Source: Escherichia coli (lineage in GTDB: Bacteria; Pseudomonadota; Gammaproteobacteria; Enterobacterales; Enterobacteriaceae). From it: a DNA stretch of 64,000 nt. The notes below the pieces were generated by a model. That model saw only the letters and a program-made list of their open reading frames with translations, had not been told where the DNA came from and searched no databases. Below, in pieces: positions 28,379 through 30,433 of the stretch. The position numbers and the translations under genes are program-made. How positions within the stretch are numbered: the stretch's first letter is position 1; the number at the start of each line of letters is the position of its first letter. The stretch lies in NCBI RefSeq assembly GCF_024502345.1, contig NZ_JALDNN010000001.1; one strand, given 5' to 3'.

Positions 28379-28441
28379 AGTATCACCGCCAGTGGTATTT
28401 ATGTCAACACCGCTAGAGATAATTCATCACCGCAGATGGTT
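28379..28441 (-). promoter_or_regulatory. Lambda-type pL promoter with OL1, OL2, OL3 operators
   Basis: OL1 TATCACCGCCAGTGGTA (28381-28397) identical to lambda; OL2 (28405-28421) and OL3 (28425-28441) each differ from lambda at one position; -35 TTGACA and -10 GATACT on the minus strand. Confidence 0.8.
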
Positions 28442-28627
28442 ATCTGTATGTTTTTTATATGAATTTATTTTTTGCAGTGGTGCATTGTTTGGTAGGTGAG
28501 AGATCTGAACTGCTATGTTTAGTGAGTTGTATCTATTTATTTTCAAATAGATACAATTGGTTATGTGTTCTTGGGTGAGGGGGATCGTGAGGCAAAGAAA
28601 ACCCGGCTCTGTGGCCGGGAATAACAT

Positions 28628-29006
28628 TTAGGAATCAAGGTCAGGTAGCATGATTTTCTCAATCAACGTCAATGCCCTTTGGTCTCGTTCAGCAAAATAT
28701 TTAGGAGCGTACTGAGGCAGCCACACTTCGTTGAAGTATTGTTTGAAATCTGCAATATTCGTTTGGGTATAGACGTACCGGGAATGTCCGGCCATCTGGG
28801 TACTCATGGTTATATGTTGGGAATGTCTTCGGCTCAACCCCCCGGTTGTCACGGAGCCATTGCGAGAAAACCCTACCCTCTGAAATATCAGGGACCATTT
28901 TTTCTGGCAGCGTATATCCGGCCTGTTCAAGTGGCGCAACCAAGTTAAACGTCAGTTCATTAAGCATAGAAAAGTGCGTATGAGGAACTCTGCCTCGGTT
29001 TGTCAT
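28628..29006 (-). pseudogene. Two overlapping ORFs in different frames downstream of the KilA-N ORF; possible frameshifted C-terminal part of an antirepressor-like gene
   Basis: ORFs 28701-29006 and 28628-28939 overlap out of frame and directly follow the KilA-N ORF. Confidence 0.3.
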
Positions 29007-29045
29007 ATACCGCTTAAGGTGGATAGGGAGTTCGGCAGGCGCTCT

Positions 29046-29387
29046 TTAACCTGACATCCACTCACGCACCCATCTCGATACTTGCACTGCAAATTTTGGA
29101 GATAGCCACTGAGCTAAATTAATTGCGATGTCTGGATGAACCCAAGTCCCTTGATTCTCTGCTCTTCCGCCTTTAAATGATTGAATTAACTCCGATATGG
29201 GAATCCCCATATCGCGTGATAATTCATCAAAAAAATCTTGTGTTGTTTTTAGTCGTGTATAGTCAGCAAGTAGCTTCCCCGCAGACTTGCACATCGCGGT
29301 GGCATTGATGTATCCGTCTTTGGTGCGAAGATGGATGACTTCTCCATCAACTTCTCTAGCGATTAATGCAAGTTGAAATTGTGTCAT
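29046..29387 (-). CDS. KilA-N domain protein
   Basis: 113 aa ORF with KilA-N-like N-terminal domain; immediately downstream of cI. Confidence 0.55.
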   Translation of the reverse strand: MTQFQLALIAREVDGEVIHLRTKDGYINATAMCKSAGKLLADYTRLKTTQDFFDELSRDMGIPISELIQSFKGGRAENQGTWVHPDIAINLAQWLSPKFAVQVSRWVREWMSG

Positions 29388-29418
29388 AAATCATCCTATT
29401 ACGTGAAAAATAAAACAA

Positions 29419-30132
29419 TCACCCAAACGTCTCTTCTGGCCACTGGCTGGCGATAACTTTCCCCACAACGGAACAACTCTCATTGCATGGGATCATTGGA
29501 TATTGCGGGTTTAGTGGTTGTAGAAACACCTGACCGCTATCCCTGATTAGTTTCTTGAAGGTAAACTCATCACCTCCAAGTCTGGCTATGCAGAAATCAC
29601 CTGGCTCAACAGCCTGCTCAGGGTCAACCAGAATTAACATTCCGTCAGGAAAGCTTGGCTTGTAGCCTGTTGGTGCGGTCATGGAATTACCTTCAACCTC
29701 AAGCCAGAATGCAGAATCACTGGCTTTTTTGGTTGTGCTTACCCATTTCTCCGCATCGCCTTTGGTAAAGGTTCTAAGCTCAGGCGAGAACATCCCGGCT
29801 TGAACATGAGAAAAAACAGGGTACTCATACTCACTTCTAAGTGACGGCTGCATACTAACCGCTTCATACATCTCGTAGATTTCTCTGGCGATTGAAGGGC
29901 TAAATTCTTCAACGCTAACGTTGAGAATTTTTGCAAGCAATGCGGCGTTATAAGCATTTAATGCATTGATGCCATTAAATAAAGCACCAACACCTGACTG
30001 CCCCATCCCCATCTTGTCTGCGACAGATTCCTGGGATAAGCCAAGCTCATTTTTCTTTTTTTCATAAATAGCTTTAAGGCGACGTGCGTCCTCAAGCTGC
30101 TCTTGTGTTAACGGTTTCTTTTTTGCGCTCAT
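29419..30132 (-). CDS. cI: Lambda-type CI repressor (S24 peptidase / LexA-like)
   Basis: 237 aa ORF, about 98% identical to lambda CI as recalled (4 substitutions); HTH plus Ala-Gly cleavage site and Ser/Lys dyad region. Confidence 0.9.
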
Positions 30133-30142
30133 GCATTAAATC

Positions 30143-30207
30143 TATCACCGCAAGGGATAAACTTCTAACACCGTGCGTGTTGACTATTTTACCTCTAGCG
30201 GTGATAA
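30143..30207. promoter_or_regulatory. Lambda-type OR3-OR2-OR1 operators with PR and PRM
   Basis: OR3 (30143-30159) and OR2 (30165-30181) identical to lambda; OR1 TACCTCTAGCGGTGATA (30189-30205) has one G-to-A change; PR -35 TTGACT and -10 GATAAT. Confidence 0.85.
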
Positions 30208-30232
30208 TGGTTGCCTGTACTAAGGAGGTTGT

Positions 30233-30433
30233 ATGGAACAACGCATAACCCTGAAAGATTATGCAATACGCTTTGGGCAAACCAAGACGGCTAAAGATCT
30301 CGGCGTATATCAAAGCGCGATTAACAAGGCCATTCATGCAGGCCGAAAGATTTTTTTAACTATAAACGCTGATGGAAGCGTTTATGCGGAAGAAATAAAG
30401 CCCTTCCCAAGTAACAAAAAAACAACTGCATAA
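30233..30433 (+). CDS. cro: Lambda-type Cro repressor
   Basis: 66 aa [69 protein letters not shown], near-identical to lambda Cro. Confidence 0.9.

Follow-up and report, generated by a model that had tools for sequence, protein, structure and literature searches.

Closest to the locus studied here are phage lambda and a set of wild phages that Degnan et al. reportedly sequenced in 2007 as having lambda immunity specificity. The wild phage records compared here (GenBank EF120455-EF120461, i.e., HK544, mEp332, HK244, HK542, CL707, mEp234 and HK106, together with HK97) have the same cI and cro as our locus, with 0-7 CI substitutions relative to lambda, and six operators in the same arrangement with the same pL, pR, PRM and Timm, and, between cI and OL, a slot in which the accessory genes vary. 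These phages are viable and have N and replication genes, whereas the prophage described below, which lies in a 64,000-nucleotide stretch of Escherichia coli DNA (the window), is a remnant. Lambda (NC_001416, 35.5-38.3 kb) shares with the window the overall architecture, OL1, OR2 and OR3, the leaderless cI start, and the DNA-recognition residues of CI and Cro, but differs from it by single bases in OR1, OL2, OL3 and the pR start (about 4% DNA divergence), by rexAB in the place of a bstA-family pseudogene, and in its nut sites and, apparently, its N specificity. Two prophages, in strains 1008S19 and 980-2, carry the full operator/promoter haplotype of the window, and PGAP assigns the same CI and Cro accessions in both (WP_021568302.1 for CI). 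The former (argW/dsdC site) has CI and Cro translations equal to those of the window, shares its truncated bstA-like gene and is 99.7% identical to it over 2.7 kb but, unlike the window, keeps N and has an IS1 after cII. The latter (sbcB site) is P22-like and apparently complete, keeping int, N, replication, Q, lysis, head and ejection genes, in contrast to the window remnant without N, and its accessory genes below cI differ from those of the window.

The immunity block of the window consists of the following features:

28379-28407, minus strand: promoter pL, from a consensus scan and lambda alignment (TTGACA, 17 bp spacer, GATACT), overlapping OL1 and OL2
28381-28397, no strand: operator OL1, identical to lambda
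28405-28421, no strand: operator OL2, A at position 8 versus G in lambda (pL orientation)
28425-28441, no strand: operator OL3, first base C (28425) versus T in lambda
28602-28619, minus strand: Timm-like intrinsic terminator at the end of the cI operon, its equivalent being annotated in EF120455-EF120460
28628-29387, minus strand: bstA-family (KilA-N) accessory gene, a pseudogene, downstream of cI at the place of lambda's rexAB
29419-30132, minus strand: cI, 237 aa, intact
30139-30167, minus strand: promoter PRM, by alignment, with -10 TAGATT (30139-30144) as in lambda and -35 TAGAAG (30162-30167)
30143-30159, no strand: operator OR3, identical to lambda
30166-30182, no strand: operator OR2, identical to lambda
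30180-30208, plus strand: promoter pR, from a consensus scan (TTGACT, 17 bp spacer, GATAAT)
30190-30206, no strand: operator OR1, TACCTCTAGCGGTGATA, A at position 8 (30197) versus G in lambda
30233-30433, plus strand: cro, 66 aa, divergent from cI and read from pR

By homology and layout, this region is a lambda-type immunity module (pL/OL, cI, PRM/OR/pR, cro), with a near-lambda CI, a lambda-type Cro and tripartite operators; all six 17-bp sites (OL1-3 and OR1-3) are at lambda spacing, have the lambda half-site consensus and overlap pL, pR and PRM. The original prediction of a lambda-type immunity region with a retained cI was thus borne out, the cI reading frame being intact and the operators and cro being of lambda type. 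Its description of cI and cro as almost identical to lambda holds for the proteins (4 of 237 and 2 of 66 residues differ) but is generous for the DNA, where the cI-cro block is 96.3% identical. The 233 CI residues that match lambda include the DNA-recognition helix, and none of the four substitutions (T3A, K71N, R129K and S157Y, with Met numbered 1) falls in what we take to be the helix-turn-helix. CI also keeps what are presumably the Ala-Gly cleavage site and the catalytic Ser and Lys, with the GNSM and FKKL motifs present. All four substitutions are found, together with OL2-A8, in phage mEp332, and the window cI has no private change. Cro matches lambda at 64 residues (M12I and V55I being the exceptions) and is identical to the Cro of phage PhiR5_2.

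Base-for-base alignment agreed with the predicted identity of OL1, OR2 and OR3 with lambda and with the three predicted single-base differences, namely G-to-A at the same position 8 in OR1 and OL2 (in the latter a T at 28414 on the plus strand) and T-to-C at the first base of OL3. Taken together, the six operators differ from lambda at 3 of 102 bases (2.9%), which does not exceed the divergence of the block around them (roughly 3.7%), so the pattern of differences alone is not beyond chance. Nor are the differences sequencing errors, a possibility that the prediction had allowed for, since the 2.2 kb from 28300 to 30500 are 100% identical in an independent complete genome, that of 1008S19. Further changes had gone unmentioned: the A at which lambda's pR transcript starts is a C here (30215), two plus-strand positions immediately 3' of the cI start codon (30133 and 30135) differ from lambda, and TAGAAG replaces TAGATA as the PRM -35 hexamer, which lowers the matches to consensus from 4/6 to 3/6. 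The last of these might reduce cI transcription, although its occurrence in an apparently intact prophage argues that the variant is tolerated.

Among wild sequences, A8 is the commoner allele of OR1, and the G of lambda is in the minority. A is found in 7 of 8 characterised phages with a lambda-type immunity region (mEp234, HK97, HK244, HK542, CL707, mEp332 and PhiR5_2), only HK544 sharing lambda's G, and in 70 of 90 IMG/VR OR regions (G in the other 20); among complete E. coli genomes, 176 have A and 174 have G. The population history of OL2-A is quite unlike that of OR1-A, as it belongs to a minor haplotype linked to OL3-C: OL2-A is found in 14 of 68 IMG/VR OL regions and OL3-C in 11 of 68, and 26 complete E. 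coli genomes have the window-type OL vs. 562 with the lambda type (the two types together being present in about one tenth of these genomes). This rarer haplotype combines OL2-A and OL3-C with the TAGAAG PRM -35 and the C at the pR start. TAGAAG was found in 8 IMG/VR regions, each with OR1-A, while most OR1-A regions have OL2-G; unlike the window, none of the wild phages tabulated has OL3-C1, TAGAAG or the pR-start C. The operator alleles are already known, from GenBank records of the wild phages sequenced for lambda immunity specificity and from numerous E. coli genomes.

The cost of these substitutions for repressor binding is expected to be small. At position 8 of OR1 (G10-C32 in PDB numbering), G-to-A changes the binding energy of lambda repressor by +0.4 kcal/mol, among the smallest effects measured; the outermost operator base pair also gives +0.4 kcal/mol, as opposed to 2-3.7 kcal/mol at contacted positions (Table 3, PMC2194778). 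These values come from measurements on OR1 and are transferred to OL2 and OL3. Single base changes in OR1 and OL2 are also what makes lambda vir-type phages, for which the operators are named without base positions (PMC3349717). However, vir-type mutations abolish useful repressor binding, whereas the position-8 change costs only about 0.4 kcal/mol and is found in phages that form lysogens; the OR1 variant of the window is, accordingly, not of the virulent (operator-constitutive) type.

The prophage around the immunity block is heavily decayed, as the following features show:

27158-27358: xis/torI (PHROG hit), now read from pL
27494-27838: phrog_1229 reading frame (PHROG hit), now read from pL
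27939-28232: DUF551-like reading frame, now read from pL, its PHROG hits being families of unknown function
28221-28222, no strand: left deletion junction, from blastn against three related prophage loci (L001, L131 and L132)
28296-28310, minus strand: nutL boxB hairpin, GCGCUGACAAAGCGC on the pL transcript, not of lambda type
30440-30447, plus strand: boxA, CGCTCTTT
30472-30486, plus strand: nutR boxB hairpin, UCGCUGACAAAGCGA, not of lambda type
30571-30867, plus strand: cII-like activator gene, intact (phrog_191 at 1.2e-36)
31048-32193, plus strand: chimeric reading frame at the right deletion, its PHROG hits splitting at residue ~35

On the left, homology to lambda ends just inside the pL leader, and homology to the related prophages stops between nutL and the N start codon. 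The N reading frame, present in all three related loci, is absent from the window, and most of the left-operon genes were deleted along with it. The DUF551 label may be given by analogy to a PGAP-annotated DUF551 gene at the same position in L131. On the right, the lambda alignment breaks past boxA. The boxB hairpins, which were read from the sequence and which we take to be of the P22/HK97 type, suggest nut sites on either side of the immunity block with an N specificity other than lambda's. Further right, everything between an O-like replication gene and the gene of a P22-type ejection ('DNA transfer') protein is deleted: the former contributes its first ~25-35 codons, and the latter follows in the same frame from codon ~98. 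Homology to the intact prophage L131 ends at 31124, and the comparison with 980-2 places this junction inside the O-like gene; an IS1-mediated deletion after cII, suspected because homology to 1008S19 ends at 30938, was discarded given the 980-2 junction at ~31124.

Further damage was found in the bstA-like gene, in which, by alignment to PhiR5_2, a GAA codon has become the stop TAA (29046-29048) and 2 bp are missing near 28756, and in the tailspike, which is interrupted by an IS2-like element and misses ~50 N-terminal residues. The intact PhiR5_2 homologue (253 aa) matches phrog_6287 BstA at 1.8e-82 and PADLOC BstA at 2.5e-20; hence, location and homology fit a BstA abortive-infection gene, but the window reading frame is broken. 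With defects in N, replication and tailspike, this is not a functional P22-like or lambdoid prophage and it cannot make phage. None of the complete E. coli genomes covers at least 80% of the 12-kb remnant, and its arrangement occurs in none of them. The prediction that the prophage is crippled was confirmed by the loss of N, the O'-ejection fusion, the IS-cut tailspike and the bstA-like pseudogene. The accompanying statement on non-lambda cargo driven by pR and pL is misleading, since what lies downstream has not been acquired as cargo but consists of early-operon and ejection leftovers of the same P22-like phage, joined by deletions. The analysis shows all these sequences directly, along with the frequencies of the alleles, the structure of the haplotypes, the integrity of the genes and the deletions.

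We consider it likely, with a probability of roughly 85%, that the window holds a naturally circulating lambda-immunity allele carried by a P22-like mosaic phage, now gutted, and that its operator variants are inherited standing polymorphisms. Such a phage would have brought the module into the argW site and later lost most of its genome. The variants, which sit at presumably weakly contacted positions, would have arisen before the prophage and would not have been selected as a pair, OL2-A8 and OL3-C1 probably deriving from the minor haplotype lineage with the TAGAAG PRM -35 and the pR-start C. The original prediction had instead proposed that parallel G-to-A changes in OR1 and OL2 may tune repressor occupancy, which the data do not support: OR1-A is the majority allele and occurs mostly with OL2-G, so that the two do not form a functional pair, and the OR1 change costs only +0.4 kcal/mol, near the minimum of the measured matrix. 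A broader version, in which OR1-A8, OL2-A8 and OL3-C were selected for weaker CI occupancy and would shift the induction threshold, or cut OL3/OR3 autorepression and thereby compensate for the weaker PRM -35, could draw on two observations. OR1, OL1 and OL2 are all polymorphic for G/A at one and the same operator position, and the OL2-A, OL3-C, PRM -35 and pR-start variants co-occur across regions with differing OL-cI cargo genes. However, this association is equally explained by common descent of the haplotype, and the window prophage has no private change (100% match to the independent genome). Adaptive selection of these alleles is, therefore, unlikely in our view. It is also quite improbable that the recurrent G/A represents a balanced or repeatedly selected 'dial' for repressor occupancy and induction threshold across hosts. 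If it did, laboratory lambda would represent the all-G, tightest-binding extreme, and the window prophage an intermediate setting with compensating PRM and OL3 variants.

Simple neutral drift from a single origin does not fully account for the wild sample either. The polymorphic operator positions in IMG/VR are all central (8-12) except OL3 position 1, the recurrent G/A lies in the exact context CT(G/A)G in OR1, OL1 and OL2, and only 24 bp separate the sites in OL1 and OL2, yet all four combinations of their alleles were seen, which points to repeated change or to very short tracts of conversion. Very-short-patch (VSP) repair in E. coli presumably turns CTAG into CTGG or CCAG. A mutational hot spot, with CTGG/CTAG sites of several operators flipping again and again with little effect on fitness, would fit both the context and the combinations, but CCAG, the second VSP product (T7-to-C), did not occur in the IMG/VR OL sample, and recombination among mosaic phages could equally yield the combinations. 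We thus rate the hot spot as very improbable as the explanation; it would account for recurrence and not for function, and it is compatible with the inheritance of standing polymorphisms favored above. Hardly credible is a last reading, that the operator differences stem from relaxed-selection decay or from sequencing or assembly error. The evident degradation of the prophage (the pseudogene, the N deletion, the O'-ejection fusion and the IS insertion) speaks for decay, but cI, cro and cII are intact, the 28300-30500 segment recurs unchanged in an independent genome, and each operator variant is also found in functional phages or an apparently complete prophage. Judging from these matches, this reading is already refuted.

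Under inheritance of a circulating allele, CI made from PRM would bind OR1/OR2 and OL1/OL2 cooperatively, each variant operator binding it only ~2-fold more weakly than its lambda counterpart. Bound CI would repress pR and pL and activate its own promoter, which would make the cell immune to superinfecting phages of lambda immunity. Upon SOS cleavage of CI, pL would transcribe the DUF551-like reading frame, the phrog_1229 reading frame and xis, and pR would transcribe cro, cII and the O'-ejection fusion, with no phage produced. We infer cI expression, repression and immunity from the preserved gene and sites; immunity due to the retained cI is a reasonable expectation, and the intact cI probably still confers it against lambda-immunity phages, in an ordinary, already known way. 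A gutted prophage with intact cI, cro and cII and complete operators is a plausible source of immunity to this group of phages. The value of the locus as a discovery is small, as is the measured effect of its key substitution. It is important to note, however, that textbook lambda OR1 is a minority natural allele, and comparison against lambda can, consequently, make the common wild form look like a mutation.

Two side questions were also assessed. Three lambda-like records, 4W, E26-Berryhill and lambdaS3243, were considered as possible lambda vir sequences and rejected, given that their cI-OR block differs from lambda only at 37589 and 37742, which we take to be the ind1 and cI857 positions, with one further change, at OR1 position 9, in 4W. 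Finally, co-adaptation between the CI N-terminal arm (residue 3) and OR1 was considered and rejected as well. In the named phages Ala3 pairs with OR1-A and Thr3 with OR1-G, but in IMG/VR the combination of G with Ala was found 17 times and that of A with Thr once; hence, the association between residue 3 and OR1 represents linkage rather than strict pairing.

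The window's immunity region represents a well-known module in a common natural form, and the prophage that carries it is defective. Direct reading of the window sequence and its alignment to lambda (NC_001416) reproduced every base listed in the original prediction, including the G-to-A change at one shared position (8) of OR1 and OL2, the first-base change in OL3, and the identity of OR3, OR2 and OL1 with lambda. The features of the region are as follows.

28381-28397, OL1, same as lambda
28405-28421, OL2, G-to-A at position 8 in the pL orientation (plus-strand T at 28414)
28425-28441, OL3, first base C, T in lambda
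28407-28379, pL, from a consensus scan
28619-28602, Timm-like terminator, from a consensus scan
29419-30132, minus strand, cI; CI differs from lambda by T3A, K71N, R129K and S157Y (Met = 1)
30143-30159, OR3, same as lambda
30166-30182, OR2, same as lambda
30190-30206, OR1, TACCTCTAGCGGTGATA, A at 30197, G in lambda
30180-30208, pR, from a consensus scan
30233-30433, cro; Cro differs from lambda by M12I and V55I

Three further differences from lambda were absent from the prediction, namely a PRM -35 hexamer (30162-30167) of TAGAAG instead of TAGATA, two bases adjoining the cI start, and a C at 30215 where the lambda pR start has A. The cI-cro DNA is 96.3% identical to lambda, and the operator differences (3 of 102 bases) are not above the divergence of the surrounding block.

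The window's operator bases are not unusual. Among eight named phages (GenBank records from Degnan et al., together with HK97 and PhiR5_2), seven carry A at OR1 position 8 (mEp234, HK97, HK244, HK542, CL707, mEp332 and PhiR5_2) and only HK544 has the G of lambda; mEp332 further shares OL2-A8 and the full set of four CI substitutions with the window. Across 90 IMG/VR OR regions, OR1 position 8 is A, as in the window, in 70 and G in 20, while it is T in remoter relatives. The 68 IMG/VR OL regions have G (window and lambda) in 45 and A in 23 at OL1 position 8, A (window) in 14 and G (lambda) in 54 at OL2 position 8, and C (window) in 11 and T (lambda) in 57 at OL3 position 1, the last being the only polymorphic operator position of the wild sample that is not central (8-12). 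Complete E. coli genomes hold the OR1-A 39-mer in 176 cases and the OR1-G 39-mer in 174, and the window-type OL in 26 vs. 562 for the lambda-type. The allele is already known from published phage records and many genomes. As a separate observation, OR1 of the lambda-like phage 4W (OM475432.1) carries T instead of G at its central position 9 (lambda coordinate 38006); this phage also departs from lambda at 37589 and 37742, taken here as the ind1 and cI857 positions.

The original prediction further proposed that the parallel OR1 and OL2 changes may tune repressor occupancy, and this part was not supported. OR1-A is the majority allele, and OR1-A and OL2-A are not a pair, as is evident from the combinations counted on IMG/VR contigs carrying both operators.

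Combinations of OR1 position 8, OL2 position 8 and OL3 position 1 on IMG/VR contigs
A, G, T: 44 contigs
A, A, C: 12 contigs
G, G, T: 12 contigs
A, A, T: 3 contigs
G, A, C: 1 contig

The measured effect of such changes is also small. Systematic base substitutions in OR1 (reproduced in PMC2194778, Table 3) show that changing G10-C32 (PDB numbering; operator position 8) costs lambda repressor +0.4 kcal/mol for A-T, +0.5 for T-A and +0.2 for C-G, and that changing the outermost pair A19-T23 to G-C, which matches the OL3 change, costs +0.4 kcal/mol, compared to 2-3.7 kcal/mol at contacted positions. OL2 aligns with OR1 in the same orientation and with identical bases locally (CTCTGGCGGTG), so the OR1 value can reasonably be carried over to OL2. 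Repression by lambda CI is buffered by cooperativity and by looping between OL and OR; at an expected effect of about 2-fold per variant site, repression should be essentially intact. Adaptive tuning of the operators is therefore disfavoured. Co-adaptation of residue 3 of the CI N-terminal arm with OR1 position 8 was also considered and rejected.

Alternatively, the operator differences might reflect decay or sequencing error, which is refuted by the presence of the same bases in independent genomes and functional phages. The window is 100% identical to E. coli 1008S19 over 28300-30500 and 99.7% identical over the wider 2.7-kb block (28221-30938), which argues against sequencing error. A mutational hot spot could also be invoked: very-short-patch (VSP) repair bias at CTAG/CTGG could explain that the CT[G/A]GCGGTG position is polymorphic in OR1, OL1 and OL2 alike (window 30197, 28390 and 28414; IMG/VR loci L003-L122), and that every combination of OL1 and OL2 alleles occurs although just 24 bp separate the sites. 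However, the alternative VSP product is absent from the OL sample, and recombination explains the data equally well. The polymorphism in the three operators could stem from recurrent CTAG/CTGG mutation, short conversion tracts or selection.

For the window itself, inheritance of a whole natural haplotype accounts for these bases. OL2-A is part of a minor haplotype that also includes OL3-C and the pR-start C and, often, the PRM -35 variant. The full haplotype (including TAGAAG and the pR-start C) is found in E. coli 980-2, in an apparently complete P22-like prophage at sbcB (L131; integrase, N ORF, replication, nin, Q, lysis, terminase, portal, coat and ejection genes). It also occurs in 1008S19, in four IMG/VR contigs and, alongside a frameshifted cI, in strain 81. 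Because these share it, we infer that the window prophage inherited it whole; the window's immunity region has no private change. L131 and the related prophage locus L001 also hold an intact, unannotated N-like ORF (19553-19970) with an arginine-rich motif (MTRRTQFKGNSRSRRRERLKAK...); to the left of pL, RefSeq/PGAP lists nothing but an 'incomplete antitermination protein/regulator' of 69 bp.

The prediction was right to call the prophage crippled: the element, the leftover of a P22-like mosaic phage with lambda-type immunity, has left and right deletions, a chimeric ORF and a shortened tailspike. Its arrangement was found in no complete E. coli genome.

about 27070 to the integrase (37161-38354), prophage element, adjoining argW
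28296-28310, nutL boxB hairpin, non-lambda
28628-29387, minus strand, bstA-family (KilA-N) gene, downstream of cI
30472-30486, boxB of a non-lambda nutR, right of cro
30571-30867, cII, intact, right of cro
31048-32193, plus strand, in-frame chimeric ORF, O-like replication initiator/P22-type ejection protein
33762-34996, IS2-like (IS3 family) element, directly upstream of the tailspike ORF
35086-37026, tailspike ORF
38480-38554, tRNA-Arg(CCT)

On the left, homology to related prophages ends at 28221, between the nutL boxB and their N position, and transcription from pL now enters a DUF551-like ORF (labelled by analogy with a PGAP-annotated DUF551 gene at the matching position of the 980-2 prophage), a phrog_1229 ORF and a xis/torI gene. 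On the right, where a small phrog_1331 ORF also lies beyond cro, the first ~25-35 codons of the chimeric ORF are O-like and the remainder corresponds to codon ~98 onwards of a P22-type ejection ('DNA transfer') protein. Given this fusion and the end of homology to the intact relative at 31124, the replication, nin, Q, lysis, packaging and head genes have been lost; the ORF marks the deletion of replication, late-regulation, lysis and head genes. The tailspike product begins at about residue 51 of tailspike profiles (~50 N-terminal residues missing), its head-binding end probably having been cut off by the IS2-like element.

Whereas lambda has rexAB between cI and OL, this element has a bstA-family abortive-infection gene, the intact 253-aa form of which (phage PhiR5_2) matches phrog_6287 (BstA abortive infection; 1.8e-82) and PADLOC BstA (2.5e-20). 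A stop codon (GAA-to-TAA, 29046-29048), together with the loss of 2 bp near 28756, inactivates the window copy; a 113-aa truncated product (WP_227164514.1, PGAP) is annotated in both 1008S19 and strain 81. A passage of PMC8585504, citing Degnan et al. 2007, describes the cI-to-N interval as a known hot spot for mosaic diversity.

With cI, cro, cII and both operators intact and the remainder decayed, the simplest reading, inferred from sequence, is that the cell remains immune to phages of lambda immunity; of 5,426 complete E. coli genomes, about 590 contain the OL region of such phages. If PRM still yields CI, pL and pR would be silenced and the cell would be protected from them; the chief doubt here concerns the PRM -35 variant.

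The sister remnant in strain 81 (L132; NZ_CP088131.1, 9001-12258), at the shared argW/dsdC site, has the same operator haplotype, a frameshifted cI and an ISSen4-family IS, and its homology to the window stops at 30268 inside cro, just before an annotated partial DNA-transfer-protein pseudogene; it represents an independent decay path within one prophage lineage. The chromosomal surroundings of the window's element are those of E. coli, with evgS, dsdA and the csc sucrose locus on its left. A csc-type cluster (22747-26629) directly adjoins the xis end, comprising what we take from the translations to be an invertase (22747-24189), a fructokinase (24396-25310) and a sucrose permease (25382-26629), whereas 1008S19 and strain 81 have dsdC at this site instead.
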